DNA of 64,000 nucleotides from Candidatus Saccharimonadota bacterium (lineage in GTDB: Bacteria; Patescibacteriota; Saccharimonadia; Saccharimonadales; HK-STAS-PATE-42): positions 37,157 to 101,156 of the forward strand of contig DAISWL010000002.1 in the NCBI GenBank assembly GCA_036826375.1, written 5' to 3'. The notes below the pieces were generated by a model. That model was not told the DNA's origin, searched no databases, and saw nothing but the letters and a program-made list of their open reading frames with translations. A program made the translations under genes and the position numbers. How positions within the stretch are numbered: position 1 is the first letter of the stretch; every line of letters begins with the position of its first letter. Below are positions 1 through 64,000 of the stretch, piece after piece.

Positions 1-227
1 AGCTTCAATGTTTTTAGCAGATATGTTTAGTTTTTGTTCAATTAAGCTTAAGAAGTTGGCTAGTGAATTGGAGAAATCCGATTCAGAAATTTTCTGGATA
101 GGCTGGCTATTGATGGTTAATCCAAAATTGCCAGTACCGCCAGTTTCATAATAAGCATTTAGTAAGTTTTTTTTGCCAGAAAAAAGAGAGTATTCATAAC
201 TACTACTGCCAGGGTTGATTGCTAACG

Positions 228-2582
228 TTAAAAATTCCATCGCCAATTTTCAATCTCCGGCATATCAATTCCATTTTGCTCGATGTAGTTTTTATGTTCA
301 AGAAGTCTCTTTTGCATATCAACTTTTAGCACCTGGCCAGCATCGCCTAATTCTAAACGGTCAACAACATCTATAACAAGATTAAAACGATCCATCTTAT
401 TCATAACGGTCATATCAAAAGCAGTAGTAATAGTTCCCTCTTCTATATAGCCTCTAACGTGAAGCTTTTTATTGGCCCTTTTATAGGTTAAGCGATGTAT
501 CAACCAAGGGTAACCATGGAAGGCGAAAACTACAAGTTTATCTTTTGTGAACAATTCATCAAACTCTAAACTACTTAAACCGTGCGGATGATCGGCTCCA
601 TCTTCTAGCATCATTAAATCTACTACATTAACGTAGCGAATCTTAAGTTTAGGCAAACGATCACGCAAAATGGAAACAGCAGCTAAAGTTTCTAGGGTTG
701 GTACATCGCCAGCACTTGCAATAACTACATCTGGGTCGCCGTCGTCATCGTTGGATGCCCACTCCCAACGGCTGATTCCTCTTGAACAATGTTCAATGGC
801 CTGCTCCATAGTCAGCCACTGCCTACTATCGTGTTTATCGCAGATAACTAGATTAATGTAATTTCGTGACTGCAGAATATGATCCATAACTGAGAGCAAA
901 GTGTTGGCATCGGGCGGTAAATATATTCTGGTTGTTTCAGCTTTTTTATTAATTAAGTGATCGATAAACCCGGGATCTTGATGAGTGAAACCGTTATGAT
1001 CTTGTCGCCATACGTGCGAAGTTAATAGATAGTTAAGCGATGCAATTGGATCTCGCCAACTAATCTCAGAAGACATTTTGATCCATTTAGCATGTTGATT
1101 TAACATTGAATCAACAATTCGGATAAACGCCTCGTAACTATGAAATAAACCGTGCCTTCCAGTTAGTAGATATCCTTCCAACCAGCCTTGGCACTGATGC
1201 TCACTCAGCATTGAATCGTGTACCATCCCTTGTGGAGCTAGAAACTCATCAGTTTTTTCTGTATCGGCATCCCATTGACGGTTAGTTGCTTCAAAAACGG
1301 CATCCAGTTTATTGGATACAGTTTCATCAGGCCCGAAAATTCTGAAATTAGATTGCTCATGATTAAGCTTAATAATATCTCGCAAGAAAGTTCCGGTTAC
1401 GGCAGTGTTGCTGGCCATTACACCACCGGGGGAGGATAATTTTAGTTCGTAATCACGAAAATCTGGCATGTGCAGTTCTCGGAGTAAGCTCCCGCCGTTA
1501 GCGTGCTTATTTGCTCCCATGCGTTTGTTGCCGTTCGGCGACATCTCTTGTAATTCGGGGATTAGTTGCCCATTTTTATCAAACAATTCATTAGGCCGAT
1601 AACTTTTGAGCCACTTTTCTAACTTGGCTACATTTTCAGGATGAGATTCATCTACCGGCAAAGGAACTTGATGCGAGCGGAAGTTGCCCTCTATTTTATG
1701 CCCGTCAACAACTTTGGGGCCCGTCCAGCCCTTAGGAGTTCTTAAGATGATCATCGGCCACTTAGGTCTGGTTGTATCGTTTTTAGATCGAGCATATTGT
1801 TGAATTTTGGCAATCTTATCCATGGCGTAATCTAATTTTTTAGACATTAAACGATGCATAGTCATTGGATCATCACCTTCAACAAAGATTGGCTCATAGC
1901 CATATCCTTCGAAAAGTTTTTGTAACTCATCGTGATCAATTCGAGCCAGAATTGTAGGGTTGCTAATTTTATATCCATTAAGATGTAAAATCGGCAAAAC
2001 TACTCCGTCGGTTATGGGATTAAGCATTTTATTAGAATGCCAAGCCGTAGCTAGTGGCCCAGTTTCCGCTTCGCCATCGCCAACAACACAGGCAACTATT
2101 AAATCGGGGTTATCAAAAACCGCACCAAAAGCATGTGAAAGCGAATAGCCTAGTTCACCGCCTTCATGTATAGATCCTGGAATATGCGGAGAAACATGGC
2201 TAGGTAGCCCGCCCGGGAAAGAAAAAGTTTTAAACAGCTTACCCATGCCTATTTCATCATAAGTAATTTTAGGGTAATGATCTGTAAAAGTACCCTCTAA
2301 ATATGTATTACCAACTAACGCCGGACCTCCGTGACCAGGGCCAGAAATATAAAGTACGTCTACATCTCGCTCTATGATAACCCTGTTTAAATGCGCATAA
2401 ATAAAGTTCTGCCCCGGAGTTGTTCCCCAGTGACCAAGTAAATTATTTTTTATATCACTAAGCTTAAGCGGACGTCGAAGCAAAGGATTATCTCGCAAAT
2501 ATATTTGCCCTACTGATAGATAATTTGCCGCTCTCCAGTAAGCATTAAGTTTAGCTAGATATTCATCGCTAGTTGTATTCAT
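228..2582 (-). CDS. xfp: xylulose-5-phosphate/fructose-6-phosphate phosphoketolase
   Basis: 784-aa ORF; full-length similarity to phosphoketolases recalled from memory (TPP-binding GDGE region, conserved N-terminus [22 protein letters not shown]). TAA stop at 228-230. Confidence 0.88.
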
Positions 2583-2900
2583 ATTACTCCCCTTTATGTC
2601 TATATATTAGCATAACCGCTACTTAAACTTAATGAAAGAAACGATAGCTACGGAAAATTGGAAGGCGGGAAAAATAATCCCAAACTTAAAAATATATTAG
2701 GATACCAAAAACAATTACTTTAAGATAAAGTAATGAATACAGCTTTAAATACCACAAATATAAATTCATGATTAAACGTTTATGTGTTTTTGTTTTAGGC
2801 GGTCAGTCACGATTACCTGTTAACTTAAGCTTAGCACAGAATAAGCGGTTTGAATAGTCTTGAAAATTATGCTATTATATCTTTTTAAGATTGAATTTTT

Positions 2901-5646: not shown

Positions 5647-5799
5647 TACTGTTTCCTCCTGTTTTGATTAATTTATTTCAATTTTTATAGATTATTATAG
5701 TTTCGTTTGATCTTAAATCTATTGATTGAGTATGTATAGGCGCTTCTACGTTGCTTAAGCTTAATCTCGAGATAGTTTACTGAATAATATGCGATGCGC

Positions 5800-6279
5800 T
5801 TAGCTTCTAGCGAAATGAGCGAAAGCTCGGTTGGCTTCTGCCATTTTATGAACGTCTTCCTTCTTTTTCACAGCTGCTCCCGAATTATTATAAGCGTCTA
5901 CAATTTCGGTGCTTAATCTTCTAGAAAAAGGCATACCTTTTTTACTTCTAACCGCAGCGATAAACCACATTAAGCCTAAGTGAGTTCTTCTGTGGCCCTG
6001 TACGGGAAAAGGAACTTGGTAATTAGCTCCTCCTACGCGACGGCCCTTAACTTCAAACTCTGGCCATACGTTCTTTAAAGCGCCTTCAAGTGCCTCTAAT
6101 GGATTTTCAAGCTCTAGCTTTTTAGCGGCTTCTTCCATCGCTTGGTAGATTCTTTTTTCGGCAGCAGTTTTCTTGCCATCGAGCATAGATTTATTTATTA
6201 ATCTTTGCACTAAAACGGAGTTGTAAACTCTATCGGGATTAGGAATTCTTTGTAGGGATTTAGTTTTTTTCCTCGGCAT
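5800..6279 (-). CDS. rpsG: 30S ribosomal protein S7
   Basis: 159 aa, begins [16 protein letters not shown], typical S7; stop TAA at 5800-5802. Confidence 0.95.
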   Translation of the reverse strand: MPRKKTKSLQRIPNPDRVYNSVLVQRLINKSMLDGKKTAAEKRIYQAMEEAAKKLELENPLEALEGALKNVWPEFEVKGRRVGGANYQVPFPVQGHRRTHLGLMWFIAAVRSKKGMPFSRRLSTEIVDAYNNSGAAVKKKEDVHKMAEANRAFAHFARS

Positions 6280-6692
6280 TACTTGCTCTCCTTTTTAACA
6301 CCATATTTAGAACGGCTAGTTTTTCTGTCTTTAACACCCTGAAGATCTAGATTTCCACGAACAATATGGTATTTTACACCAGGAAGATCGGGGACTCTAC
6401 CACCACGAACTAAAACCGCGGCATGCTCTTGTAGATTATGACCTTCCCCGGGGATGTAAGCCCATATCTCATGGCCATTAGTTAGGCGAACACGAGCAAC
6501 TTTACGCAAGGCTGAGTTAGGTTTTTTAGGGGTTTTAGTTGTAACCTTAACGCACACACCTCTTTTAAAAGGCGAAGGTTTAATGTAAGATTTATTCTTC
6601 AAAGAATCTACCACTAAGCGTAAAGCTTGGGATTTGTATTTTTTAGCCGCAGTTTTTCTGGGCTTTCTGACCAACTGGTTAATTGTCGGCAT
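6279..6692 (-). CDS. rpsL: 30S ribosomal protein S12
   Basis: 137 aa, begins [13 protein letters not shown]; TAA stop overlaps the rpsG ATG (TAATG). Confidence 0.95.
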
Positions 6693-6864
6693 TAACTATT
6701 TCTCCTTATATTTTAGATATCCATTAAGTTTAAAACAGCTGTTTCTTTTCAAGATTTAAGCCGTTCTAATCGAAACAGTTTAGATAGTAACTCAGCAATT
6801 TCACTAAAGCCAAACTGTTTCAACATTTAATTCACGAAACTCTTTGATCTTAATATTAACCTAT

Positions 6865-9432
6865 TTAGACAATTACTTCAAGTTCTTCCTGACTGGGGCT
6901 CTTTTTCTCATTCTCTACACCGGTTCCTACTGGTATCTTTCTACCTATAATCACGTTTTCTTTTAGACCGTAGAGTTTATCTACCCTGCCACTTGTCGCA
7001 GCCCCAATGAGTACTCTATTGGTATCCTGGAAGCTGGCAGCAGAAAGGAAGCTATCACTAGCAGTAGAAACTTTAGCGATACCTAGAAGCAATTGAGTAT
7101 ATTGAATTGGTTTTTTACCTTCAGATATAAGCCTTATATTTTCCTCGATAACTGTAGCTTTAGATACGATGTCACCCGTAACTAGCAGGCTGTCGCCGCT
7201 TTCATCTATTTGAACTCTACTGAACATTTGGCGAACTATTATTTCTACGTGCTTATCGGCAATATCTACACCTTGAGCCGCATACATAGCTAACATCTCG
7301 TTAATAATATAGCGTTGCGTAGCCTCGACCCCCTTAAATTTCATTAAATCATGCAAATTCAGAGAACCAGAGGTTAATCTATCTCCGGAGGCTATTTTAT
7401 CACCTTCGTTAACTACTAGTTGCTTAAACTTAGGGACCTTATATTTCAAAGATGTACTATGCATAGATGTCAAAATCAGCTTTTTAGATTCTGTATTTAT
7501 ACTCAACTTAGCGGCGAATGGAGCTACAATCGGGTTTGTTCCATCTTTCTTGGCCGCAATAGTATCTCCAGATATAACGTCACTTCCTTCGGTGATGTAA
7601 ATAATCCTATCTTCTATATTAAATTCTTCAACTCTTGCCCCATCAGGAGTTACGGTTACGGTAAACTCGCCTTCACCCTCTAATACAGAGACTATGCCGC
7701 CAACTTCAGTAACAATAGCTTGGCCCTTAGGGTTTCTAGCTTCAAGAAGCTCCTCGATACGTGGCAAACCTTGAGTCACATCATCTTCGATAGCCGAGCC
7801 CGCCTTATGCTTAGTATTTAATGTAAGTTGGGTACCGTATTCACCTATGGATTGAGCAGCTATAACCCCTACTGGCTGATTTGGCTTAACAAGCTGACCT
7901 GTGGCTAGATCCACACCATAAGATTTAGTGGAAACTCCCCTTAGATTAGAGCAAGTTAGAACGCTCATGATTCTGGCTTCACTAAGATCACTAGATTCAA
8001 TAGCCGCTGCCGCCTCTTTAGAGATTAGGCTATTCTTACTAACTAGAACTTCATTATTAACTATAATATCTTGAGCGGAATATCTACCTTGCAAGCGCTC
8101 ACCAAAACCACGATTTATAGATTCTGACTCTTCTCTAGTTATAATGTAGCCATGATCTTCCGTGTCTCTATCCACAGTGAAAATATCTTGAGCCACGTCA
8201 ACCATTTTCCTAGTCAAGTAGCCCGCATCAGCTGTCTTAAGCGCGGTATCAATAAGACCCTTACGAGATGCTCTAGTATCTATGTAATACTCAATTGGGG
8301 ATAATCCCTTTTTATAATTACTTCTTATTGGTAGTTCGATTTCCCTACCCAGAGCATCCACCACGACTCCCTTCATACCACTAACATTTTTAAACTGACC
8401 GACGCTACCTCTTGCTCCGGAGACCACAGCGATAGCCATGCTGGAATCTGTTTGGTTAAATTGTTCTTTAAATCTGTCTAGAACTTCCGTGTCTACATCT
8501 CTCCAGGCATTTATGGTTAGCCGTCTGCGCTCGCTATCAGTGATTAGACCATCTTCATAATCAGAGGTTATGGTCTCTACTTGAGATTCACCCTGCGCCA
8601 GCATCTCTGAAAGGCCATTAACGTCAGCGAAATCATCTATCCCAGCAGAAAGACCAGCTATGGTTGCATATTTGAAGCCAAGATCCTTAAGCTTATCAGC
8701 AACTTCAGCGGTTGTGTCGACTCCATACTTATCGAATATTTTAGACATAACTTTGCTAAGCAATTTGTTGGTCATAGGTTCGTTTTGATAGAGAAAATCT
8801 TCAGGTAGAACTTCATTAAAAAGTAATCTTCCGTATGTGGTAACAACTCTATTACCCTTAATATTAAGATCTATGTTTGACTGAAGTTTAATCAGACCAT
8901 TCTCGTAGGCATACTCTACCTCGTTAGCGCTACTAAATCTAATAGATTTATCATTTTCGGTGCCGTGTTTTTGATAAGTTAAGTAGTAGCACCCTAAAAC
9001 TATATCTTGAGTAATGTGTAAAATTGGGGATCCATCAGCAGGTTTTAACAAGTTCTTATTGGCAGCCATAATTGTTCTTGCCTCATGTTGAGATTCTTCG
9101 GAAAGAGGTAAATGAACGGCCATCTGGTCGCCATCGAAATCCGCATTAAAGCCTTGGCACACCAAAGGATGTAGCATTATAGCCTTGCCGCTAACTAATA
9201 CTGGCTTGAAAGCCTGGACAGATAGGCGGTGGAGAGTTGGAGCACGATTTAAAAGCACGTATTTTTCCTGAATAGAATCTTCCAAGGCGTCCCATATAAC
9301 GTCTTCACCGGATTCAATCATTCTAGATGCAGTTCTGATGTTATGTGCATAGTCACGTTGGATCAACCACCCCATGACGTAAGGTTTAAATAGCTCCATA
9401 GCCATAGTTTTTGGTATGCCACACTGATCCAT
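6865..9432 (-). CDS. rpoC: DNA-directed RNA polymerase beta-prime subunit, C-terminal segment (from the residue equivalent to E. coli ~L352 to the end)
   Basis: 855 aa, begins MDQCGIPKTMAMELFKPYV and contains the catalytic NADFDGDQMAVH. Colinear with E. coli beta-prime [18 protein letters not shown] onward. Confidence 0.9.
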   Translation of the reverse strand: MDQCGIPKTMAMELFKPYVMGWLIQRDYAHNIRTASRMIESGEDVIWDALEDSIQEKYVLLNRAPTLHRLSVQAFKPVLVSGKAIMLHPLVCQGFNADFDGDQMAVHLPLSEESQHEARTIMAANKNLLKPADGSPILHITQDIVLGCYYLTYQKHGTENDKSIRFSSANEVEYAYENGLIKLQSNIDLNIKGNRVVTTYGRLLFNEVLPEDFLYQNEPMTNKLLSKVMSKIFDKYGVDTTAEVADKLKDLGFKYATIAGLSAGIDDFADVNGLSEMLAQGESQVETITSDYEDGLITDSERRRLTINAWRDVDTEVLDRFKEQFNQTDSSMAIAVVSGARGSVGQFKNVSGMKGVVVDALGREIELPIRSNYKKGLSPIEYYIDTRASRKGLIDTALKTADAGYLTRKMVDVAQDIFTVDRDTEDHGYIITREESESINRGFGERLQGRYSAQDIIVNNEVLVSKNSLISKEAAAAIESSDLSEARIMSVLTCSNLRGVSTKSYGVDLATGQLVKPNQPVGVIAAQSIGEYGTQLTLNTKHKAGSAIEDDVTQGLPRIEELLEARNPKGQAIVTEVGGIVSVLEGEGEFTVTVTPDGARVEEFNIEDRIIYITEGSDVISGDTIAAKKDGTNPIVAPFAAKLSINTESKKLILTSMHSTSLKYKVPKFKQLVVNEGDKIASGDRLTSGSLNLHDLMKFKGVEATQRYIINEMLAMYAAQGVDIADKHVEIIVRQMFSRVQIDESGDSLLVTGDIVSKATVIEENIRLISEGKKPIQYTQLLLGIAKVSTASDSFLSAASFQDTNRVLIGAATSGRVDKLYGLKENVIIGRKIPVGTGVENEKKSPSQEELEVIV

Positions 9433-9438
9433 ACTTAG

Positions 9439-10701
9439 TTAGGGCCCGGATACAATTACGGATCGTCCCGAGTAATCTACACGCTTACCTAGAAGATTCT
9501 GGCGGAAACGACCCTGCTTGCCCTTTAAACTATCACTCAATGATTTAAGTTTACGTCTACCACCGGTTGAAGTTACTGGGCGACCATTTCTAGCTGCAGA
9601 ATTATCAATCAAAGCATCTACTGCCTCTTGGAGCATTCTGCGCTCATTCCTTTGGATTACCTCTGGAGCATTCAGATTAATAAGCTTCTTCAAACGGTTA
9701 TTGCGATTAATGACTCTCCTGTAGAGATCGTTAATATCACTAGTGGCGAACCTGCCGCCAGTTAGTTGAACCATTGGCCTTAGATCGGGAGGAATTACGG
9801 GTAGAGCTGTTGTACACATTGAAGATGGTTCTATCCCTGCCTGATACATACCTTCTAGTACCTTCAAACGCTTCATTATTTTTTTACGCCTTGCACCTTT
9901 GGCATCTTCAACTTCTTTATTTAGCTCAGCTGTAATATCCCTTAAATCGGTTTGGTCTAGTATAGTTTTCAAAGCCTCGCCGCCCATGCCAACGGTAATA
10001 ATATCAGCATAAGCATCAGTTAGATCACGATAGTCGGTCTCAGAGATCAAAGCGTACTTATTTAGGGATTCTAGCTTAGCCTTATTCATTAAGTAATCTT
10101 CCGTGAGCCCGTCTAACTCTTTACTACGCTCAGAAGCAAGCGCCTTAACGTCTACACCCTCTTCAGCCATTAGCTCTTCATACTTGTGATTAAGTTTAGC
10201 TTTATCCGCCTCAATAGTATTTTCTAATTCATCTAGCAAACTCTGCTTAGCCTCCTCGTCTACGTTCAATATTACATAGGAAGCAAAGTAAACAATTTTT
10301 TCTAGAGATTTTACAGTCATACCGGTAATCAAGCTTATGGCGCTAGGAAGCCCCTTTAAAAACCATATATGCGCAACTGGGGCCGCTAATAGAATATGAC
10401 CCATTCTTTCACGTCTAACTATAGAGCGAGTTACGAGTTCTCCGTTCTTATCTACTGCCATTTCTCTAGAGCGTATGCCCTTGAATTTAGCATCATTAGG
10501 ATTTATGTCTTTGACTGGTCCGAAGATTCTTTCACAAAATAGGCCGTCTTTCTCTGGTTTTTGCGTTCTATAGTTGATCGTCTCTGCTTTGGTGACTTCG
10601 CCGTGAGACCAGTTAAGTACATCCTCCATGGATGCTACCAAAAGCCTAATAGCTTCAAAATCTAAGTTTTTTTCATGGGCATTTCTAATATTAAAACTCA
10701 T
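9439..10701 (-). CDS. rpoC: DNA-directed RNA polymerase beta-prime subunit, N-terminal segment (ends ...GRSVIVSGP then TAA)
   Basis: 420 aa; ends [20 protein letters not shown], matching E. coli ...[14 protein letters not shown](Y). Same reading frame as the downstream segment, separated only by TAA-CTA-AGT before ATG. Confidence 0.9.
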
Positions 10702-14599: not shown

Positions 14600-17500
14600 C
14601 TACTTTATTACTATGTTCACTTCTCCAACAACTAAACTTAAGGCCTTGGATAAACTATCATCAGCTTCTACTCTTTGGGGCAAGAGAATAGCTGTTTGAT
14701 CTGGCTTTTCGCCAAACACTAAAATCACCTGCGATTTAGTTTGCTTAGGTGGGTTAGCCAACACTAAACGATGAATCTCACGCAAAACCTGCTCGTCACT
14801 AGCCTTAAGTTTAAGGTAATATTTAGTGATTTTAGCTGTTTTAGATTCTTCTTTAGATTCTTCACTCATCTCGGGTTTGGCATCTTTATTTTTTGGTTCT
14901 GATTTAGAATCTTCATCTGATTGAACATTAGCGTGAGGTTTATTATCCAGTTTCACCGGCTGACTTTTGAGCCAATCTTCATTAATGTGTTTGATTTCAT
15001 CAGCCATAATTTTTACTTCTTCTAGGCCGTTGCCTTCTCTATCCTTGGTAGATATCTTACCCTTAATCATCACTATGGCATCTTGAACTATTAAGTTTGA
15101 GAATGCTTCGTATGTCTTAGGGAAGATAATGGCTTCCATTTGTTTGATTTTATCTTCAATTTTCACAAAAGCCATTTTAGAACCGTTTTTAGTAGTGATT
15201 ATGCGAGCTCCCGCCACAATACCCACAACTTTTGCTTCCTTGCCATCCATATCTTTTGTAATTTGATAGATTGGCGTTGCTATTGAAGATATGTGGGCCA
15301 GAACACTATCCAGGGGATGGGAAGAGAGGTATATTCCCAGAAGTTCACGCTCCCATCTTAATTTTTCTTTTTGATTAGCCTCAACCGGAGCTTTAGTTAA
15401 GCTTAAATCAGTAGGCGTGGTGGAGTTGGCATCCCCGCCAAACAATAGAGATTGGCTGGAGTTTGATTCTTTATTAATGCGTGAGCATAAAGCCAGAATT
15501 GTATCTAAATTATGCAAAATATCTTCTCTGGGGGCAAAATGATCAAATGCTCCAGATTTGATTAAAGCCTCCCAAACCTTTTTATTTAGGTTTTTAAGAT
15601 GTGCTGTCCGCTCAATAAAATCATTTAAAGATTCAAAACTTCCATCTTCGGTGCGAACTTTAACAATTTCCTCGGCGATTCCATGCCCAACATTTTTAAT
15701 AGCCATTAGCCCAAAACGGATTTTATCTTCACCCGGAACTATGGCAAACTCGGAAAAAGATTCATTAATATCCGGTGGAGCTACCTCTATGTTAATAGAT
15801 CTACAATCGCTAATATCTCCAGCTAATCTTTCATTATCGTCATAGTTACTTGTCATTAAGGCGGCCATGAAAGCATCTGGATAATGTGCCTTAAGATACG
15901 CTGTCCAGTAGGCAATCAAACCGTAGCATGCCGCGTGAGCTTTATTGAAACAGTAATCAGCGAAGGGAACAAGTTTGTTTTCCCAGAAATCTTCAGCAAA
16001 TTTAGGCTTAACTCCGCTAACCTTAACCATGCCATCTACAAATTCAGGCTGGATTTTATCCATTAAATCACGCTTTTTTTTACCGACAGCTTTTCTGAGA
16101 GTATCGGCCTGACCACCAGTAAATCCGCACATATCTTTACTAATTTGCATAAATTGCTCTTGATAGATCATCACCCCGTAAGTTTGCTCTAGCGAATTTT
16201 TGAATCCGGGATGATCGTAAGTGATTTCTTTTTTACCGTGTTTTCTGGCGATGAAATCATCTATAAATTGCATCGGACCGGGGCGATAAAGAGCCACCAT
16301 GGCCACGATGTCATCTAGAACTGTTGGTTTAAGCTCTTTTAAATAACGGCGCATCCCGGCAGATTCCAATTGAAATACCCCAGTAGTTTCACCACGCTGC
16401 AACAAACCGAAAGCTTCTGAGTCATCGTCCTTAAGCTTAGATAAATCTATGTTTTCACCGTAAACTTTTTTAATAATACGCATAGCGTTGTTTATGATAG
16501 TCAAGTTAGCCAGGCCCAAGAAATCCATTTTTAAAAGACCCAATTCTTCAATAGGCCCCATCGGATATTGAGTTGCCACGCTACCTTTAGGCGATATCTC
16601 GAGTGGAGCGAACTTAACTAAATCATCTGGGGCAATAACTACCCCCGCAGCGTGCATGCCATGGCTGCGGATTGTTCCCTCAAGCTTAATTGCTAAATCA
16701 ATAATTTTTTTAGATTGCTGATTGTTTTTGTACTCATTAGAAAAATCGACATCTTCAACAATACTTTTACTGAGTGGAATGTGCCTGCCCTGAATTGGCG
16801 GCGGAATCATCTTCGCTAACTTATCGGCTTCAGCATAAGGCACATCCAAGGCTCTAGCTACATCGCGTACTGCAGCACGAGCCGCCATGGTCCCGAACGT
16901 TGCAATATTGGCTACTCTCTCTTTGCCATATTTTCTAACACAATATTGAATAACTTCGTCACGGCGAGAATCTTGAATGTCTATATCAATATCGGGCATA
17001 CTGATTCTATCTGGATTTAAAAATCTTTCAAATAAGAGATCGAATTTTAGAGGATCAATCTCTGTAATATTCAAGCTATAGGCAATTATTGAACCAGCCG
17101 CGCTTCCCCTGCCCGGCCCAAATATAATTCCTTGATTTTTACCCCACGCTATAAAATCCCAAATGATTAAAAAATAACCGTTGAATCCCATACTGTCGAT
17201 AACACTCAGCTCATATTCTGCTCTTTTAACGATGTCCTCACTAAGCTTAAGCTTGGCTTGATCGGGTGTTAAGGCCTCAACTTCTTGCTCGCTGATAGAT
17301 AAACCTGAATATCTTTTAACTAAACCCTGATAAGTTAAGCGAACTAGCATACTTCGCTCAGTTTCGCCTTCTGGAACCGGGAATTCGGGGATGAGAATCC
17401 CGCCAAGTTCTATTGATACATCGCAACGTTCGGCTATTTTTTTAGTATTAGCCAAAGCTTCTGGCAATTCAGATTGCCACCGCTCGAAGATATCTTCAGG

Positions 17501-18310
17501 CTCAGCTAAACTTAAATCGAAATCTTGCAAACTGAAGCGTTTTTCATCGGTTACTTTAGAAAGAGTTTGAACGCATAAAAGAATTTCATGGGCTTCAGCA
17601 TCCTCACTGTTGAGATAGTGGCTATCAGATGTAAGCACCAAAGGGATGTCAACATCTTTACTAAGCTTAATCAACTGCTTATTAAGCTTAATCTGCTCAT
17701 CCCACGCTTTATGATGATTGGGATGACCATGATCTTGAACTTCTAAATAATATCTATCGCCAAAAACTGATTTATACCACAAAGCTACATCTTTGGCTTT
17801 TTTGTATTGATCTTGGCGCAGCAGATCTCCAACCTCGCCACCGATACAGCCTGAAAGAATTATTAGGCCTTCATTATACTTTTGTAATAAATCGTGATCT
17901 ATCCTGGGTTTGTAATAATAACCATCAATGTTGGCGATAGAGCTCAGGCGCATTAAGTTTAAGTAGCCAGTATTGTTCATCGCCAGAATAATTAAGTGGT
18001 AACGGCCTCTATCCAATTGAGGATCTTTATCGGTATGTTTACGATTGGCCACGTAAGCTTCCATCCCGATAATAGGTTTGATGCCAGCCTCTTTGGCTTT
18101 TTTGTAAAATTCTATTGAACCACTCAGAGTTCCATGATCAGTAACAGCTACAGCGCTCATTCCCCTAAGCTTAACCTTTTCAACCACTTGCGGAACTTTC
18201 TGTAAGCCATCTAATAAACTATGGTGAGTATGCACATGAAGATGCACAAAATCACTAGGCTTAAGGCTCAAATCTGGAGCATTTTTAGTTTTATTTTTTG
18301 CCTCACTCAT
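14600..18310 (-). CDS. dnaE: DNA polymerase III alpha subunit
   Basis: 1236 aa; N-terminal PHP domain (HLHVHTHHSLLDG), polymerase core, OB fold and a lysine/glutamate-rich C-terminal tail. Confidence 0.93.
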   Translation of the reverse strand: MSEAKNKTKNAPDLSLKPSDFVHLHVHTHHSLLDGLQKVPQVVEKVKLRGMSAVAVTDHGTLSGSIEFYKKAKEAGIKPIIGMEAYVANRKHTDKDPQLDRGRYHLIILAMNNTGYLNLMRLSSIANIDGYYYKPRIDHDLLQKYNEGLIILSGCIGGEVGDLLRQDQYKKAKDVALWYKSVFGDRYYLEVQDHGHPNHHKAWDEQIKLNKQLIKLSKDVDIPLVLTSDSHYLNSEDAEAHEILLCVQTLSKVTDEKRFSLQDFDLSLAEPEDIFERWQSELPEALANTKKIAERCDVSIELGGILIPEFPVPEGETERSMLVRLTYQGLVKRYSGLSISEQEVEALTPDQAKLKLSEDIVKRAEYELSVIDSMGFNGYFLIIWDFIAWGKNQGIIFGPGRGSAAGSIIAYSLNITEIDPLKFDLLFERFLNPDRISMPDIDIDIQDSRRDEVIQYCVRKYGKERVANIATFGTMAARAAVRDVARALDVPYAEADKLAKMIPPPIQGRHIPLSKSIVEDVDFSNEYKNNQQSKKIIDLAIKLEGTIRSHGMHAAGVVIAPDDLVKFAPLEISPKGSVATQYPMGPIEELGLLKMDFLGLANLTIINNAMRIIKKVYGENIDLSKLKDDDSEAFGLLQRGETTGVFQLESAGMRRYLKELKPTVLDDIVAMVALYRPGPMQFIDDFIARKHGKKEITYDHPGFKNSLEQTYGVMIYQEQFMQISKDMCGFTGGQADTLRKAVGKKKRDLMDKIQPEFVDGMVKVSGVKPKFAEDFWENKLVPFADYCFNKAHAACYGLIAYWTAYLKAHYPDAFMAALMTSNYDDNERLAGDISDCRSINIEVAPPDINESFSEFAIVPGEDKIRFGLMAIKNVGHGIAEEIVKVRTEDGSFESLNDFIERTAHLKNLNKKVWEALIKSGAFDHFAPREDILHNLDTILALCSRINKESNSSQSLLFGGDANSTTPTDLSLTKAPVEANQKEKLRWERELLGIYLSSHPLDSVLAHISSIATPIYQITKDMDGKEAKVVGIVAGARIITTKNGSKMAFVKIEDKIKQMEAIIFPKTYEAFSNLIVQDAIVMIKGKISTKDREGNGLEEVKIMADEIKHINEDWLKSQPVKLDNKPHANVQSDEDSKSEPKNKDAKPEMSEESKEESKTAKITKYYLKLKASDEQVLREIHRLVLANPPKQTKSQVILVFGEKPDQTAILLPQRVEADDSLSKALSLVVGEVNIVIK

Positions 18311-23774: not shown

Positions 23775-23864
23775 GCGGTGGTGGCGGAATTGGTAGACGC
23801 GCTAGCTTGAGGGGCTAGTGTCCGATTTTAGGACGTGGAGGTTCAAGTCCTCTTCACCGCACCA
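23775..23864 (+). tRNA. tRNA-Leu (anticodon GAG), class II with long variable arm, CCA encoded
   Basis: Near-identical architecture to E. coli tRNA-Leu. 7-bp acceptor GCGGTGG/TCACCGC, anticodon arm CTAGC-TTGAGGG-GCTAG, T-arm GGAGGTTCAAGTCCTCT. Confidence 0.9.
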
Positions 23865-24397: not shown

Positions 24398-25015
24398 ATG
24401 GCTAAAGAAATTGAAGTAAAATTTTTAAATATTGATCACGAAGAGATGCGTGCTAAGCTTAAGGCACTGGGCGCTAAGCTTAAATCTCCAAAAACACTTT
24501 ATAAAAGAATTAATCTAGATTTTAAAGATAATTCACTCCATAAACTGGGTAGCTGGGTTAGGTTGAGAGATGAGGGAGATAAAATCACCCTTACACATAA
24601 AATTCACAGTAAAGATCAAAAAGATCAATTAAAAATTGAAGAATTTGAAATCACCGTTAATAGCTTCGATCATGCAGTTAGTTTTTTGGAATCTATCAAT
24701 ATGAAAGTTAAAACCTACCAAGAAAATTACAGAGAAAACTGGAGCCTAAAAACCCAATCTGGTTTGGTAGAAGTGGCGCTAGATCAATGGCCTCACGTTA
24801 GGCCTCATATTGAAATAGAGTTGGAATCTGGGGATGAAAAATCTCTGGAAGAAGCCTGCCAAATGTTAAACTTAAATTTCACTCAAGCCATTAATGATGA
24901 CATCTGCCCGGTATACATGGCTGAGTATGACATATCTGAAAGATCTCAACTGTACGATTTAGAAGGTGGCTTCAGGTTCAATTCGCCGATTAAGCTTAAC
25001 AGGAAATTAACCTAA
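24398..25015 (+). CDS. CYTH-domain protein (triphosphate tunnel metalloenzyme; CyaB/ThTPase-like)
   Basis: 205 aa; N-terminal EIEVKF (ExExK) and C-terminal HIEIELESGDE (ExExE) signature motifs. Starts 2 nt after the upstream gene. Confidence 0.65.
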   Translation: MAKEIEVKFLNIDHEEMRAKLKALGAKLKSPKTLYKRINLDFKDNSLHKLGSWVRLRDEGDKITLTHKIHSKDQKDQLKIEEFEITVNSFDHAVSFLESINMKVKTYQENYRENWSLKTQSGLVEVALDQWPHVRPHIEIELESGDEKSLEEACQMLNLNFTQAINDDICPVYMAEYDISERSQLYDLEGGFRFNSPIKLNRKLT

Positions 25016-29822: not shown

Positions 29823-29855
29823 AACCAATCTCCAACCTGGTATAATTAAGTTTAG

Positions 29856-30467: not shown

Positions 30468-30527
30468 AGTTCTAGACATCTTCACTAAATTTAATTTATT
30501 TGCTACAATTAAGTTTAGTGGTTTAAT

Positions 30528-30604
30528 GGGTGGCTAGCTCAGTTGGCTAGAGCATCTCGTTTACACCGAGAGGGTCGGGGGTTCGAGTCCCTCGCCACCC
30601 ACCA
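30528..30604 (+). tRNA. tRNA-Val (anticodon TAC), CCA encoded
   Basis: Cloverleaf: acceptor GGGTGGC/GCCACCC, D-arm TAGCTCAGTTGGCTAGAGC, anticodon loop TTTACAC, T-arm GGGGGTTCGAGTCCCTC. Confidence 0.9.
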
Positions 30605-30636
30605 TTAACACTTATATTTTTTAAAAAATCATGAGC

Positions 30637-31013: not shown

Positions 31014-31059
31014 GAGTGCTTTTTACAAAGCTCAAGGTAGTATCTACTAGAATTAATAC

Positions 31060-33459: not shown

Positions 33460-33464
33460 GATAA

Positions 33465-35039
33465 CTACTTTTGACCCACAAATTTAACGAACTTCTCTAC
33501 TACAGGTTTGGCTTCTTTTAAGCCAATTAAATAACTAACGATGATATAGGCTATTATAGATATACTAACGGTAATAATGAACTTGGGCACAATCACCATG
33601 AATCCAGCATCCCCAGATCGTAGGGGCAATATTTTAATCATAAACCAGGTTATGAAAGAGGTAGCGAGCCCAGCTAATAGCATTTTTAAAATCTGGGATA
33701 TCACTTCCTTATCAAATAGCTGGTCGACATGTTTTTTCAAGAACTTCATTAATATCAGAACCTCTACTACACTAGATGATGTTTGAGCTATAGCCAAGCC
33801 TCTTACCCCTAAAGCTGAAGACCGGCCGAGAGTTATAGCCAGCACTATGTTCAAGGCAACAGCAAAGAAAGAAATGTAGAGAGGGGTCATAGTATCCTGC
33901 TTGGCGTAATATATCCTTGTTAGAATCTGGAAAAGAACCTTTGCGCCGATTAAGCCAACTAGTAGCGCCAATATGGAGGCTATCACCGCGTTGCCTTTTG
34001 CGAATAGCAGCCTAACTAAATAACCACGGCCAAAGTATGTAATTATCATTGTCGGGATGATCAACCATATTATAATCTTCACGATATTCTGAACTTCCTT
34101 CTTGAATAAATCTGGACGATTCTGGTTTAAACGTTCGGTCATCCTGGGGAATGCAGCAGTGGATATTGCGGCACCGACTAAATTAACCGGAACTGTCTGC
34201 AGAGTAAAAGCTGTCTGGTAGGCCGTGATCATACCAGGTCCTAATCTTGAAGCCATGTTAGTTTCGACCAATACGTTAAGATAATCTATGCTTTGGTCTA
34301 ATGAGCGTGTGGGAAGAATTTTGAGCACCTTATGGAAAGCTTTGTTTTTAGTATATATCCACGGTGAATAGTTAAACTTAAGACCTATCAGGCCAATAAT
34401 GCTTGTTATCAGTTGAAGAAAAGATCCGATTACCACACCGTAAGCAACCCCCATTATGCCAAATTTTGGAGATAGAAAGATAACTCCGGATATAATACCC
34501 AAACTATAAACCGATGGAGCCATGGCGTAAAAGAAGAACTTACCATGAGCTTGCTGGATGCTCGTAAGAACGCTACTCACCGAAAATAGTATCGGGTTGA
34601 TAGCAATTATACGCATCATACTAACAGCCAAAAAGGTGGCGTGTTCATCTAAGCCCGGAGCCACTATTTTAGATACTAGCGTTTCTGCAAATATAATTAT
34701 AAGTATGCTGGCTACAGTAGTAGATATTGCTAGTATATTGACTAAGCTACTACTTAGCTCCCACGCTGAGTGCCTATTCCCTTTAGCTATTCTTTCGTTG
34801 AAAACTGGTATAAAGCTAACACTAAGAGAACCAGAAACCAGAATGAAGAACATAAAATCCGGGATAGTAAAAGCTGTGCGATAGGCATCTATTTCTGGAC
34901 CTAAACCAAAATTGGCCAAAATAAGCCTTTCCCTGAGTAATCCAAGCATGCTAGAGAAAATGCCTGATGCCGCCAGCATGGCCGCCGCATAACCCACACT
35001 CATGTTCTTATTGAATCTTAAAACTAATTTTTTGATCAT
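33465..35039 (-). CDS. murJ: lipid II flippase MurJ (MviN)
   Basis: 524 aa polytopic; N-terminal LGLLRERLILANFG...DAYRTAFTIPDFMF typical of the MurJ/MOP family. Confidence 0.8.
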   Translation of the reverse strand: MIKKLVLRFNKNMSVGYAAAMLAASGIFSSMLGLLRERLILANFGLGPEIDAYRTAFTIPDFMFFILVSGSLSVSFIPVFNERIAKGNRHSAWELSSSLVNILAISTTVASILIIIFAETLVSKIVAPGLDEHATFLAVSMMRIIAINPILFSVSSVLTSIQQAHGKFFFYAMAPSVYSLGIISGVIFLSPKFGIMGVAYGVVIGSFLQLITSIIGLIGLKFNYSPWIYTKNKAFHKVLKILPTRSLDQSIDYLNVLVETNMASRLGPGMITAYQTAFTLQTVPVNLVGAAISTAAFPRMTERLNQNRPDLFKKEVQNIVKIIIWLIIPTMIITYFGRGYLVRLLFAKGNAVIASILALLVGLIGAKVLFQILTRIYYAKQDTMTPLYISFFAVALNIVLAITLGRSSALGVRGLAIAQTSSSVVEVLILMKFLKKHVDQLFDKEVISQILKMLLAGLATSFITWFMIKILPLRSGDAGFMVIVPKFIITVSISIIAYIIVSYLIGLKEAKPVVEKFVKFVGQK

Positions 35040-35132
35040 TAAGCTTAATTATAACCTATATTCAAGATTTTATGTTAAACTATTAGCCAGTAAGTAGAGA
35101 AATTTAAAAGGGTAATATAAGAAGGATTATTT

Positions 35133-36224
35133 ATGCCATCAGAAAAAAGAGAAATTGTAGATATATCTAATAAATCTATTTTTAGATTATTTTCAGCAGT
35201 ATTAATTTTCATCTTTGGTATCTACTTTTTATATAGTATAAAAAACGTTTTGGTTATGTTAATAATCTCTGGGTTTCTTGCTCTTTCTATATACAGACCA
35301 GTTAAGTTTTTAGCGACTAAGCTCAGGGTGTCTACAACTATCGGGACCATCATAGCTTATAGTCTAGTCGTGGGAATATTAGGGTATTTAATATACGCCA
35401 CTTTCCCATCGCTTATCAAACAACTCTATAGTTTAGTAATCAACGCCCCTAATACAATAGAAACCGCTAGAAATACTAATAGCTTTGCGGCTTTTGCCAT
35501 AAACGCCTTTGATCTGGAACAGAAATCAAATCAGCTTAGTCAATACGCCTCCACCCACTGGCAAGATATCGTGCACGGATTTGCTGGGCAATTTCAAAGT
35601 TTTGTAAGTTTTATATATTCTCTAATAACTATACTTATCATCACCCTTTTGATAGTGGCTGAGGGACCAGAGATGATAGACCGTCTGTGGGATATAGTAG
35701 AAGATGGCAATAATAAAAAGAAATATCAAAAACTATTATATAAAATGTATGGCGTTATAACTGGATACACTAATGGCCAAGTGATACTTACCACGTTAAA
35801 TGCAACTTTCGCATTAATATTTATGATGATAGCCTCTAAAATTGTGGGAGTTAACATCCAATACCCATTAGCCATTTGGGCGCTAGTTTGGATGGCCGGA
35901 TTAATACCATTTGTAGGAGCAACCCTGGGAGCTGCCATCTCAATATTCTTTACCATCTTCTTGAGCTGGAAATTAAGTCTAGCCATAGCCATATATTATG
36001 CAGTTTATCAGCAAATAGAAAATAGTACCCTGCAGCCATGGATACAATCAAAATCCATCAACGCAAGTGCCCTAACGATATTTGTGGCAGCGCTTATAGG
36101 CGCTAGCTTTGGCGGAATAGTGGGTGCTTTTGTTGCTATACCAGTAGCTGGGTGTATGAAAGTAGGTATTGATTTCTACCTCAGAGAAAACTCAAAATCA
36201 ATTAGAATTAAGAAGAATAAATAA
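35133..36224 (+). CDS. AI-2E family (PerM/UPF0118) transporter
   Basis: 363 aa with ~8 predicted TM helices; topology and size fit AI-2E permeases. The family call is from memory of its general pattern. Confidence 0.5.
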   Translation: MPSEKREIVDISNKSIFRLFSAVLIFIFGIYFLYSIKNVLVMLIISGFLALSIYRPVKFLATKLRVSTTIGTIIAYSLVVGILGYLIYATFPSLIKQLYSLVINAPNTIETARNTNSFAAFAINAFDLEQKSNQLSQYASTHWQDIVHGFAGQFQSFVSFIYSLITILIITLLIVAEGPEMIDRLWDIVEDGNNKKKYQKLLYKMYGVITGYTNGQVILTTLNATFALIFMMIASKIVGVNIQYPLAIWALVWMAGLIPFVGATLGAAISIFFTIFLSWKLSLAIAIYYAVYQQIENSTLQPWIQSKSINASALTIFVAALIGASFGGIVGAFVAIPVAGCMKVGIDFYLRENSKSIRIKKNK

Positions 36225-39315: not shown

Positions 39316-39576
39316 TTATTTATAAAGTTCAGAATGCGTTCCGATCATTTCAAAAATATAGATAGTCTCATTATCTATACGGTAGATAGCTCTGTAATCG
39401 CCGGTTACGCTAAAACTGCTATAATCTTTTAACTCACCGCTTAGCTTATGAGCTCTTAGGAGTGGAGCTCTAGGATTGCTGATAAAAAGCTCCAACCTTA
39501 GCTCAAAAGCACTTTTAACTTTACTTGGAAATTTAGTGAATTGTTTTTTGAACTTTTTACTAAACTTAATCTTCAT
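39316..39576 (-). CDS. relE: type II toxin, RelE/ParE family
   Basis: 86 aa; the pattern LSGELKDYSSFSVTGDYRAIYRIDNETIYIFEMIGTHSELY is characteristic of RelE/ParE toxins. Overlaps the upstream antitoxin gene by 11 nt. Confidence 0.7.
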   Translation of the reverse strand: MKIKFSKKFKKQFTKFPSKVKSAFELRLELFISNPRAPLLRAHKLSGELKDYSSFSVTGDYRAIYRIDNETIYIFEMIGTHSELYK

Positions 39577-39874
39577 TACTATTCAACCAGGCTAATGCAT
39601 CTTCAGTGTTATTAAAAGCTGGAGAATAGTTTTTTTTGTTCTCAGTTTCGTTTAAGGCAGAGAGTAATTCTGTGGCTACGGCAGGATTCAACTCCTCCTC
39701 TGCTCTATCTGGGTTATCCTTAGGCTTAAAGACGATTTTGTTTTCAGCTAATATCTTTTCAAAGGCTTTAGTTGCAACCGTACTAACTGGTAAACCTAGG
39801 CTTTTAGCAAAGGCCTGGAGTTCATCTTTAAGATCTTTATCTATTTTAGTGTTTAAAACTGTTACGTTACTCAT
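39566..39874 (-). CDS. relB: type II antitoxin, RelB/DinJ family (ribbon-helix-helix)
   Basis: 102 aa; N-terminal NTKIDKDLKDELQAFAKSLGLPVSTVATKAFEKIL resembles DinJ/RelB. Immediately precedes and overlaps the toxin gene. Confidence 0.65.
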   Translation of the reverse strand: MSNVTVLNTKIDKDLKDELQAFAKSLGLPVSTVATKAFEKILAENKIVFKPKDNPDRAEEELNPAVATELLSALNETENKKNYSPAFNNTEDALAWLNSNED

Positions 39875-62106: not shown

Positions 62107-62299
62107 GTTTAAGTGATAGCGATAAAACTAAAAGAGAATCGAACGAAGAGAGTTCGGGCGAAGCTTTCCGCAAGCCAAGCGTCAGAGAGCTTATCTCTCA
62201 TTAATATTATTAAAATTAGAGTAGCACCATATTCCGTGAAGTCTTTTATCTAGCCCCTCGTTTATTATTGATCTTAAATTAATTATAGAATTAAATCGT

Positions 62300-63301
62300 T
62301 TAAGCTTTACTTCGTCCCCTGAGTAATTGTTTAGCTTTAATGACTATGTTGGTAGAATTAAGGCCGTAGCTAAGCTTAAGCTCTTCGTAGGTACCACTTT
62401 GACCGAATTTATCCTCAATACCAATTCTGTGAACAAGAGTAGGCAGATTCTCGGACAAAATCTCACCGACTAAAGACCCCAAGCCTCCGCTAACCTGGTG
62501 TTCCTCTACTGTTATAACTAGCCCAGTTTTAGCGGCGCTCTCTATAATAGTATCCTTATTTATTGGTTTCAAGCTGGGAGCGTGAAGAAGATCAGCTTTG
62601 ATGTTATCCTTTCTTAAACGAATCACTGCTTCTATAGCTTCTACAGTGATAACTCCTGTAGATATTATCGTGATGTCGCTACCTTCGCTAAGCTTAAGTA
62701 CATCTCCTATGACAAATTGTTTATTCTTGGGAGTAAATCCTTCTGTGGCCTCACGGGAAAGTCGTATGTACCCTGGCCGAGGATCTGCTGCCAGGGCTAA
62801 AGCAGCCATCTCTGCTTCGTTTGCATCGCCAGGTGAAAGAACAACCATGTTAGGCAAAGATCTCATCAAGGCTATATCTTCCAGAATTTGATGAGTGGCT
62901 CCATCTGGGCCAACAGATAAGCCGGCATGTGAACCAACTATTTTAACTGGCTGATCATTTAAGCAAATAGTCGTTCTTATTTGTTCCCAGCACCGCCCGG
63001 GGGCAAAGGCTGCGTAGCTACTAACAAAAGGGACCTTGCCCATCGAGGCCATTCCACTACCAACAGTAACCAGATTTTGCTCGGCAACTCCAACTTCTAT
63101 AAACCTCGATGGGAATGCATCTCTAAAAAGATGCATTTGTGTGCTTTCTGTTAGATCCGCGCTTAAGCCTACTACTTTAGTATTTATTTGACCGGCTTTC
63201 AATAAACCCAGACCAAAACCAACTCTGCTCGCTACTTTATCGCTGCTTAGATTTAGTTCAAATAGGGGGTTAGATGGTTTGAAAGATTTAAATTTGATCA
63301 T
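62300..63301 (-). CDS. transketolase, C-terminal (pyrimidine-binding/C-terminal domain) subunit
   Basis: 333 aa; matches the second half of transketolase (FIEVGVAEQNLV..., pyrimidine-binding and C-terminal domains). 4-nt overlap with the upstream subunit gene. Confidence 0.85.
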   Translation of the reverse strand: MIKFKSFKPSNPLFELNLSSDKVASRVGFGLGLLKAGQINTKVVGLSADLTESTQMHLFRDAFPSRFIEVGVAEQNLVTVGSGMASMGKVPFVSSYAAFAPGRCWEQIRTTICLNDQPVKIVGSHAGLSVGPDGATHQILEDIALMRSLPNMVVLSPGDANEAEMAALALAADPRPGYIRLSREATEGFTPKNKQFVIGDVLKLSEGSDITIISTGVITVEAIEAVIRLRKDNIKADLLHAPSLKPINKDTIIESAAKTGLVITVEEHQVSGGLGSLVGEILSENLPTLVHRIGIEDKFGQSGTYEELKLSYGLNSTNIVIKAKQLLRGRSKA

Positions 63302-64000
63302 AAGTGGCCTCCTTCAATTGCTCCATCAAGAGTGCGCAATCGTTTAATAGCATTCTTTTCCTGCTCCTTATTAGGTGCTTTACCGTGCCAAGCGGGATCA
63401 TACTCCATGAAATCTACACCTTTGCCTGGTATAGTGTGAGCTATTATTAAATTAGGTTTAGCAGTCTGACTCCTTGCTAATCTCAAGGCGCCGATAACAG
63501 ATTCTATATTATTGCCATCTGTCTCCTGAACGTACCAGCCGAAAGATTCCCACTTTTCTCGTAGATCCTCCAAGGGCATAACATCTTCGGTGTAGCCGTC
63601 TATTTGGATATTATTTCTATCCACTATACCAACTAAGTTGCCTAACTTATATTTAGAAGCGAACATCGCAGCCTCCCAAATATTACCCTCGTTTAGCTCC
63701 CCGTCTCCCATAGTGCAGTAGATTCTTCGGGTTTTATTGCCGTCAATGAGTAAGCTTAAAGCCATTCCTGCTGCCTGACTTAAGCCTGATCCTAATGGCC
63801 CAGAAGTACTTTCTAGCGCCGGGATTCTCAATCGCTCAGGATGTCCTTGCAGGCTAGACCCAAACTTCCTTAAGCTTAAAAGTAGATGTCTAGGGAAATA
63901 GCCGGCTCTAGCCATTACAGCATAGCGCGCCGGTACGGTGTGCCCGTTAGATTGAACCAGGATGTCCCTCTCTGCCCAAGATGAATCATTAGGATCATGC
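63298..64000 (-). CDS. transketolase, N-terminal (thiamine-diphosphate-binding) subunit, 5' end beyond window
   Basis: GHPE, the TPP-binding GDGELNEGNIWEAAMFA block and GWYV. The reading frame stays open upstream of the track's first Met (...HTVPARYAVMARAGYFP matches the KGHA.PALYA region), so the true start lies past position 64000. Confidence 0.85.
   Translation of the reverse strand, partial: HDPNDSSWAERDILVQSNGHTVPARYAVMARAGYFPRHLLLSLRKFGSSLQGHPERLRIPALESTSGPLGSGLSQAAGMALSLLIDGNKTRRIYCTMGDGELNEGNIWEAAMFASKYKLGNLVGIVDRNNIQIDGYTEDVMPLEDLREKWESFGWYVQETDGNNIESVIGALRLARSQTAKPNLIIAHTIPGKGVDFMEYDPAWHGKAPNKEQEKNAIKRLRTLDGAIEGGHL

Follow-up and report, generated by a model that had tools for sequence, protein, structure and literature searches.

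We report that a 64-kb stretch of Saccharibacteria DNA (positions 37,157 to 101,156 of contig DAISWL010000002.1, assembly GCA_036826375.1; this whole stretch is hereafter referred to as the window) is densely populated by a short motif, YTAARCTTAA. The unit is asymmetric, in that one half, CTTAA, is exact and the other, YTAAR, tolerates transitions, and it behaves as an orientation-independent motif of the DNA duplex. It is preserved at the level of DNA and in conflict with protein-coding interests, is shared by four related lineages and is missing from recently acquired DNA. We tentatively read YTAARCTTAA as a transformation-linked 'self' tag, similar to the DNA uptake sequences (DUS) and uptake signal sequences (USS) of other bacteria, which may have accumulated via natural transformation.

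Over-representation of the motif in the window

Exact counting in the window (G+C 39.2%), with expectations calculated from base composition and from Markov models of orders 3-5, gave 115 copies of the hexamer AAGCTT, to be compared with 20.9 expected from composition, 55.7 at order 3 and 90 at order 4. In the initial annotation the hexamer had been tallied by hand at 90-100 copies against a compositional expectation of about 20; the expectation agrees with ours and the over-representation is real and stronger than first described, while the tally itself was too low. The octamer TAAGCTTA is present 70 times (1.9 expected from composition, 5.8 at order 3 and 29.7 at order 5) and is the commonest of all 8-mers, and the 10-mer TTAAGCTTAA is present 32 times (0.18 and 1.0 expected from composition and at order 3, respectively). 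Thus, the excess stands in the exact count against a third-order model that had been suggested as a check. Among palindromic hexamers AAGCTT is the most over-represented by a wide margin, and only AAGCTT and the overlapping CTTAAG are far above expectation. The excess is massive, genome-wide and lineage-specific, and the earlier remark that the pattern runs counter to restriction avoidance holds.

Among the Hamming-1 neighbours of TAAGCTTA, strong enrichment is confined to the two near-copies with a central transition, TAAACTTA (49 copies) and TAAGTTTA (41 copies), which are enriched 15-fold. For the double variant TAAATTTA the count does not rise above background (7 versus 4.6 expected), and TAARYTTA as a whole is in 13-fold excess.

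The enriched unit is an asymmetric 10-mer

For the half-site analysis each 10-mer was split into two halves and the combinations were counted in the readable clade DNA, i.e. about 154 kb of non-redundant sequence pooled over four lineages and covering less than 10% of any one clade genome (Table 1). YTAARCTTAA has 387 sites in total and each version is found at 80-240 times expectation.

Table 1. Half-site combinations of the 10-mer in 154 kb of pooled clade DNA
Halves	Sequence	Sites	Fold over expectation	Remark
TTAAG + CTTAA	TTAAGCTTAA	105	242	
CTAAG + CTTAA	CTAAGCTTAA	75	134	
TTAAA + CTTAA	TTAAACTTAA	108	80	
CTAAA + CTTAA	CTAAACTTAA	99	114	
CTAAG + TTTAA		17	20	both halves imperfect
	CTAAGCTTAG	1	near background	perfect palindrome, both halves imperfect
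	TTAAATTTAA	5	near background	perfect palindrome, both halves imperfect
	CTAAATTTAG	0		both halves imperfect

Two transitions within the same half occur at 99 sites and one transition per half at 17, at equal Hamming distance from the palindrome, which rules out a symmetric model with additive half-sites (a homodimer). The rule of one exact half is valid separately in each of the four lineages. Every tolerated change is a transition, the central one being C>T, and the motif can be written as 5'-(V)YTAARCTTAA(K)-3', with a weak V before, G or T after, and a total of about 17 bits. Consequently the palindrome is not the enriched unit, as had been assumed in the initial annotation: asymmetric members are co-enriched, whereas the palindromes CTAAGCTTAG and TTAAATTTAA are not. 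Rather, TTAAGCTTAA is the member that matches both strands, with an enrichment about twice that of the other versions and approximately equal to the sum of two single-strand enrichments.

A HIP1-type origin, named after the highly iterated palindrome of cyanobacteria, was considered. According to this alternative a resident and probably orphan DNA methyltransferase recognises AAGCTT (or AGCT), the sites are created and kept by a bias of methylation-coupled mismatch repair or of very-short-patch repair (Elhai's model), and TAAGTTTA and TAAACTTA are deamination products of 5-methylcytosine. We find it quite improbable. It is true that the core is a type II palindrome of the classic kind and that the top enriched 10-mer is palindromic, but of the four co-enriched members three either do not contain AAGCTT or are not symmetric, and no enrichment is seen for other palindromic variants or for the double variant TAAATTTA. 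In the window AGCT is generally not depleted, and a repair bias at the central pair cannot yield the excess of the whole TAARYTTA. That the tolerated changes are all transitions, with C>T in the centre, fits deamination; however, the central position is not hypermutable, since changes from perfect to variant amount to about 8% per position compared with 51% at neutral third positions. Strain-level single nucleotide polymorphisms (SNPs) show 0-1 differences in motif columns versus about 1 expected, which are thin data and too few for showing hypermutability or drive; a hypermutable 5-methylcytosine is unsupported by both the orthologous and the strain-level substitutions. Density and positional conservation are like those of HIP1 (PMC5861425), and cyanobacterial HIPs co-occur with cognate methyltransferases (PMC4390886), but in the window no DNA methyltransferase was detected among the unannotated open reading frames (ORFs) with Pfam and NCBIfam, and neither was any competence protein or nuclease. 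The only DNA methyltransferase seen in the clade is a type I HsdM/S on a motif-free island (see below). Pfam listings of the flanks and relatives, which cover less than 10% of any one clade genome, contain no cognate methyltransferase, and the search for a HindIII-like enzyme that had been recommended found none in the inspectable clade DNA.

Distribution over genes, spacers and strands

The octamer TAAGCTTA lies within ORFs in 56 of 70 cases and the remaining 14 copies are in the non-coding 9.6% of the window. The ORF copies are read as AAG-CTT (37) or xTA-AGC-TTA (19), the TAA frame not being used at all, and the copies reported inside xfp, rpoC, dnaE, recG and tig are present. For YTAARCTTAA 80% of the sites in the window are inside genes, and the density is 4.5 per kb in intergenic and 1.8 per kb in coding DNA (a 2.5-fold difference), with divergent spacers having the highest value, 7 per kb. 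The 10-mer is kept out of genes whose protein sequence is under the strongest constraint, i.e. rpoB (Table 2), fusA (0 sites), rpoC (1) and tuf (1), and in less constrained genes its density is up to 6.5 per kb.

Asymmetric sites are distributed as 54 on the top and 44 on the bottom strand, and as 38 on the coding and 42 on the template strand; no strand skew was seen in the window overall or in any 8-kb block. Roles in RNA or peptides, and motifs of the Chi/KOPS type, are excluded because the motif has no strand bias, and an RNA duplex (or wobble) role is further contradicted by the lack of enrichment of pairing-competent palindromes. The flank comparison revealed no conserved sequence beyond about 2 bp on either side of the 10-mer and no information past about 12 bp, and therefore the motif is not a mobile element. 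A repeat of the REP (repetitive extragenic palindromic) or MITE (miniature inverted-repeat transposable element) type was likewise rejected, there being neither a longer structured unit nor conserved flanks, and most sites being intragenic.

Constraint at the DNA level and cost to proteins

Synonymous codons were shuffled such that each protein and the codon usage were kept, which gave 9.0 ± 2.9 sites in coding sequences versus 104 observed (z=32). For Lys-Leu dipeptides the codon pair AAG-CTT is used 53 times versus 13 expected from codon usage, and the pairs AGC-TTA and CTT-AAG are biased likewise.

Orthologous genes were compared between the window and its relative L097 (nucleotide identity 74-79%). 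Octamer sites are identical in place in 20 of 38 cases, compared with 13.6% for control 8-mers, and the third codon positions are identical in 86.7% of cases inside the sites and in 48.6% outside (Fisher p=1e-13). Perfect and variant forms interconvert between the two genomes. The near-copies had been interpreted as decayed versions of the palindrome, which did not hold: they are as frequent as the perfect form and 10 of 20 variant sites are kept as variants at orthologous positions, well above the control value. Moreover, half of the near-copies in the window entail an amino-acid change, the non-synonymous Lys-Phe (19) and Asn-Leu (14) versions being about as common as the synonymous ones (28 and 14). 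Decay was rejected on these grounds and since it does not fit the asymmetry between same-half and split-half changes.

In DnaE (a 1236-aa ORF at 14600-18310 with PHP and DNA_pol3_alpha domains) the residues beneath the motif are at positions that are less conserved among 40 motif-free relatives (0.69 versus 0.83, p=7e-5); several motif residues nevertheless replace ones that are near-invariant in these relatives (H>S, V>L, E>S, P>K). An asymmetric rule on a palindromic scaffold together with such an amino-acid cost is unusual even under another mechanism, e.g. a methylation-linked or protein-binding tag, and we know of no earlier account of either.

Range of the motif

The RecG protein encoded in the window is identical to NCBI HMS31889.1 (MAG TPA: Candidatus Saccharibacteria bacterium), and the ORFs are typical of Saccharibacteria (xfp-ackA, fusA, rpsLG, rpoBC, dnaE, pheS, recG, lepA, murJ, tuf, tig and the rpoA cluster). 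Judged from these sequences the source is a metagenome-assembled genome (MAG) of Saccharibacteria (TM7, Patescibacteria). The same sequence has been assembled independently in many samples (ENA, Logan and JGI).

The motif is present at RecG identities of 100, 78, 72 and 57%, which represent four lineages; the motif-bearing relatives are L097 and L182 (an 899-kb JGI contig), L099 and L100, and L101 (a 540-kb contig without synteny to the window). In the relatives (RecG 78%, 72% and 57%) perfect octamers are found at 1.2-1.6 per kb, and the density of YTAARCTTAA is 2.1-3.4 per kb in the individual lineages, which extrapolates to roughly 2,000 copies per 0.9-Mb genome. Confinement to the window, which the initial annotation had raised together with a comparison to relatives, is ruled out by these lineages with the same density and by the 9.7 kb beyond the window start, where TAAGCTTA is present 19 times versus 0.3 expected.

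The comparison also gave 160 loci without the motif. It is absent from 80 other Saccharibacteria genomes (DnaE 51-58% identical, several with the same G+C) and, among the matches listed, from 80 loci in metagenomes that encode distant relatives of RecG (34-45% identity). As a positive control, one of the latter loci has HIP1 (GCGATCGC) at 0.58 per kb, as in cyanobacteria. In a scan of the GTDB species-representative genomes the closest DnaE match was 58% identical and the clade itself was not retrieved; the clade may be absent from this collection. Viral scans for the island recombinase and for the double-motif pattern gave nothing or, among the matches listed, chance matches and one hexamer array, and none of the 120 viral matches listed has a motif density at the level of the clade. 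The array (L291 459-542, IMG/VR UViG_3300028800_000357) consists of TTAAGC/TTAAAC at 6-bp steps and is a local tandem repeat, not a genome-wide enrichment.

We regard it as highly unlikely that the motif is a by-product of composition, of codon usage or of proteins rich in Lys, Leu and Ser, or that it is a local repeat, a miniature mobile element or an assembly artefact. The genome is AT-rich, Lys and Leu are common, and an order-5 model predicts 30 of the 70 copies of TAAGCTTA; against this, the synonymous shuffle is exceeded by far, the density is higher in non-coding DNA, conservation ends within 2 bp of the 10-mer, independent assemblies carry the identical sequence, and neither AT-rich relatives of the same GC nor an island in the same genome contains the motif. 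These shuffle, density, flank, assembly and relative controls exclude composition and codon usage as well as mobile elements and artefacts of assembly.

Motif-free islands and mosaic DNA

The island on L182 (Table 2) has 0 sites versus about 17 expected, whereas its flanks have about 3 per kb. It encodes a 623-aa HsdM (N6_Mtase) together with a half-size HsdS, as well as a serine recombinase; HsdR was not seen. A second element was found in L093, which belongs to another strain of the species of the window: next to tRNA-Leu it carries a serine-recombinase element with no AAGCTT, no 10-mer and one octamer variant in 1.8 kb. The motif is hence missing from DNA that was recently acquired.

The large serine recombinase of L093 (12149-13711, ERZ27290355 k141_94070) is located right after recG/tRNA-Leu, and its family is 85-90% identical over many unrelated contigs, i.e. 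probably a mobile element with a broad host range. In the window the tRNA-Leu-GAG gene (23775-23864) marks a strain-variable insertion point, with a hypothetical ORF and a CYTH gene where L093 has the recombinase.

L099 and L100 are mosaics when compared with window positions 13251-37171: identity is 99.8% at the rpoB end, falls to 80% across dnaE and to 72-80% in pheS-recG, reaches 100% over about 7 kb (29613-36100) and is then 95%, with graded transitions. Their RecG sequences are identical to each other and the two differ elsewhere, and in L099 dnaE is split into five ORFs by indels, which suggests that L099 comes from a long-read assembly. The mosaic represents either recent homologous exchange between lineages that share the motif or an assembly chimera.

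Spacing, paired sites and the tRNA-Phe hairpin

The commonest short spacing is a 6-bp offset, with 14 overlapping pairs in 138 kb. Pairs 8-20 bp apart are nearly missing (2 versus about 15 expected in the pooled clade DNA) and a spacing of 21 bp recurs, two such pairs being kept in three lineages (Table 2). A footprint, an arrangement on the same face of the helix or selection against short hairpins may underlie this pattern. Of two tandems claimed in the initial annotation, the one given as 17247-17258 exists with a slightly different span (Table 2), whereas 24465-24500 is no tandem, the two copies being 21 bp apart.

Table 2. Coordinates of motif features (in the window unless another sequence is given)
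Feature	Start	End	Strand	Details
YTAARCTTAA field	1	64000	.	130 sites, i.e. 32 palindromic TTAAGCTTAA and 98 asymmetric; 2.0 per kb; 115 AAGCTT cores
rpoB	10704	14078	-	zero 10-mer sites over 3.4 kb
True tandem AAGCTTAAGCTT in dnaE	17243	17254	.	two copies overlapping at 6-bp offset
TAAGCTTA pair in dnaE	17662	17690	.	21 bp apart; kept at orthologous position in L097 and L099
Motif pair in CYTH-domain gene	24454	24482	.	21 bp apart; orthologous pairs in L097 and L099 have the TAAACTTA form
Terminator-like hairpin just after tRNA-Phe	30733	30758	+	two AAGCTT cores form a 10-bp stem, followed by T-run
ABC-F ATPase gene, densest	36413	38104	-	11 sites, 6.5 per kb
Divergent intergenic region	48043	48387	.	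three sites (48176, 48276, 48282)
Motif pair	49997	50025		example of 21-bp spacing
Island on L182 (JGI Ga0558720_00018, 899 kb)	5918	11802		5.9 kb; G+C 43-45% versus 38-40% in flanks

The spacing bears on the alternative that YTAARCTTAA is bound by an abundant protein with sequence specificity for DNA, acting in nucleoid organisation, segregation, replication or global transcription, and that the sites persist through selection on chromosome function and not through transfer-linked drive. Neighbours at 8-20 bp are excluded and pairs at 21 bp, two helical turns, are recurrent and conserved, and the periodicity of HIP1 has been read likewise (PMC5861425); the overall spacing is, however, over-dispersed (coefficient of variation 1.27) and not regular. 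A quasi-palindromic scaffold would suit such a protein, but the additive model with two half-sites fails, and nucleoid or segregation proteins with 17-bit sites in the thousands are not known. Moreover, the strong conservation at orthologous positions and the peak in divergent promoter regions fit binding, while about 2 sites per kb in essential genes, with residue replacements, are hard to justify by selection on each site. Absence from islands would be expected only if the function needs no sites there. On balance we consider this alternative unlikely.

The earlier observation that the motif forms the stem of a terminator hairpin after tRNA-Phe was reproduced (-13.9 kcal/mol, z -3.4). The hairpin is duplicated at 30941-30966, within a 111-nt direct repeat (30695-30805 and 30903-31013, 98% identical, 208 bp apart) that copies the last 18 nt of tRNA-Phe as well as the hairpin; the repeat resembles either a scar of the att type or a local tandem duplication.

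A possible uptake sequence

Saccharibacteria carry type IV pili and their natural competence, which is comEC-dependent, has been established experimentally (PMC10633639), and uptake bias together with homologous replacement is a sufficient drive for DUS and USS (PMC1939737, PMC3458573). A corresponding scenario for YTAARCTTAA would start from competence through type IV pili and ComEC, in which a component of the machinery, or a recombination step after import, would prefer DNA with the motif. Replacement of motif-less alleles by motif-bearing conspecific fragments would then outnumber the opposite exchange, and molecular drive would fill the tolerant positions of the shared genome until protein constraint halts the filling, while islands arriving by site-specific recombination would stay motif-free. 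We infer the uptake bias, the receptor and the drive from the motif's properties, which carry the signature of an uptake sequence because it is asymmetric, strand-unbiased, present in about 2,000 copies, imposed on proteins, conserved, clade-specific and lacking from islands. It is possible, although short of probable, that YTAARCTTAA represents the first uptake or transformation-enhancing sequence in Patescibacteria (the candidate phyla radiation, CPR), a kin tag that would be read by the type IV pilus/Com machinery. L101 encodes a PilB-type T2SSE ATPase (5722-7356), and the mosaic identity between lineages with the motif and the link of HIP1 to transformation (see below) also speak for this reading.

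Several points weigh against an uptake sequence. No comEC, dprA or receptor gene was found in the approximately 154 kb of clade DNA, i.e. in less than 10% of any one genome. The palindromic scaffold (TAA..TTA), which known uptake sequences lack, hints at a dimeric reader; the site density is about twice that of DUS/USS; and the sites are densest in divergent promoter spacers and not at terminators. The avoidance of pairs at 8-20 bp fits the footprint of a bound protein at least as well as uptake, the conservation of sites is equally compatible with selection for another function at the DNA level, and the mosaic could be an assembly chimera.

In the literature searched we found no description of YTAARCTTAA as an iterated element, nor of an uptake sequence in Saccharibacteria or other CPR bacteria, and the initial annotation had known of none for any lineage. 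If the uptake reading is true, gene exchange in the clade would be biased toward kin, and so heavily that conserved residues of essential proteins have been altered in a genome of 0.9 Mb. The clade belongs to the CPR, a radiation of tiny obligate epibionts for which natural transformation was demonstrated recently. The motif would provide a handle on DNA exchange in this Saccharibacteria clade, and its presence on donor DNA could raise transformation efficiency in relatives. It is also a sharp marker for binning the clade and for spotting foreign DNA.

Other features of the window and the clade

The rpoC gene corresponds to an ORF pair on the minus strand (6865-10701) with an in-frame TAA stop at 9439-9441 (…SGP*LSMDQCG…). 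This position reads GAA (Glu) in four independent assemblies (L081-L084), as the sole mismatch in 12,582 aligned bases, and the stop probably reflects an error in the consensus or the sequencing, or else a rare SNP in this assembly, rather than a true split of the gene. The genome, of about 0.9 Mb, encodes an xfp-ackA phosphoketolase module, and transketolase is split into 62300-63301 and an ORF running off the end of the window. Two pairs of a YafQ/ParE-type toxin with a RelB-like antitoxin were noted, one in the window (39316-39874) and one in L081 (19411-19952).

Comparison with known systems

The octamers Chi and KOPS/AIMS, read by RecBCD/AddAB or FtsK, are over-represented asymmetric oligomers that are read in the duplex and mark 'self' DNA, and in these respects they resemble YTAARCTTAA. 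They are, however, strongly skewed with the direction of replication and 5-10 times rarer, whereas our motif is unskewed in every 8-kb block of the window.

HIP1 and the alternative HIPs are hyper-abundant 8-10-mers whose top form is a palindrome with a type II-like site, and like YTAARCTTAA they are found at about 1 per kb, are kept at orthologous positions between genomes and are restricted to certain lineages. The differences are that here, in the 154 kb of clade DNA, the perfect palindrome is not the enriched unit but one of four co-equal members, other palindromic variants being not enriched, and that deviations affect positions 1 and 5 in a single half, those of HIP1 being at the outer positions of both halves (PMC4390886). 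Furthermore, the motif is AT-rich and HIP1 GC-rich, and no cognate methyltransferase was found here in about 154 kb. The function of HIP1 was long unknown and is now experimentally linked to transformation, whose efficiency it reportedly increases, and HIP1 has been suggested to act as an uptake sequence (bioRxiv 10.1101/2024.09.10.611283; 10.64898/2026.06.24.733823).

The comparison with HIP1 and with uptake sequences in the initial annotation was apt, as the abundance, the action at the DNA level and the sharing among relatives agree with DUS/USS. For the direct comparison we used the published consensus sequences, taken from established knowledge: DUS of Neisseriaceae (ATGCCGTCTGAA and dialects, GCCGTCTGAA-type) and USS of Pasteurellaceae (AAGTGCGGT and ACAAGCGGT) are likewise short and asymmetric (9-12 bp), on the order of 1 per kb, with about 2,000 copies per genome. 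Like these, YTAARCTTAA is a short, non-palindromic, hyper-abundant motif that occurs in both orientations without strand bias (387 sites in 154 kb; 54:44 and 38:42), lies in genes and is enriched between them (4.5 versus 1.8 per kb), and is imposed on codons and weakly constrained residues (z=32). It is shared by related species, conserved in place and scarce in acquired islands, its one-off variants are enriched, copies can pair into terminator hairpins, and the host phylum is naturally competent via type IV pili and ComEC. It differs in being AT-rich and about twice as dense, in its palindromic scaffold and two transition-degenerate positions, and in its host, Patescibacteria, epibionts with 0.9-Mb genomes. 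Its sequence is unrelated to either consensus and would make a new family.

To our knowledge, genome-saturating uptake sequences are firmly known from two proteobacterial families only, with cyanobacterial HIP1 as a debated third. By its sequence YTAARCTTAA lies outside the DUS, USS and HIP1 families, and it is a genome-saturating short DNA tag in a new phylum, with an unusual architecture that is asymmetric on a palindromic scaffold. As an uptake sequence, such a new and unrelated example would show that genome-saturating uptake tags are a general phenomenon.

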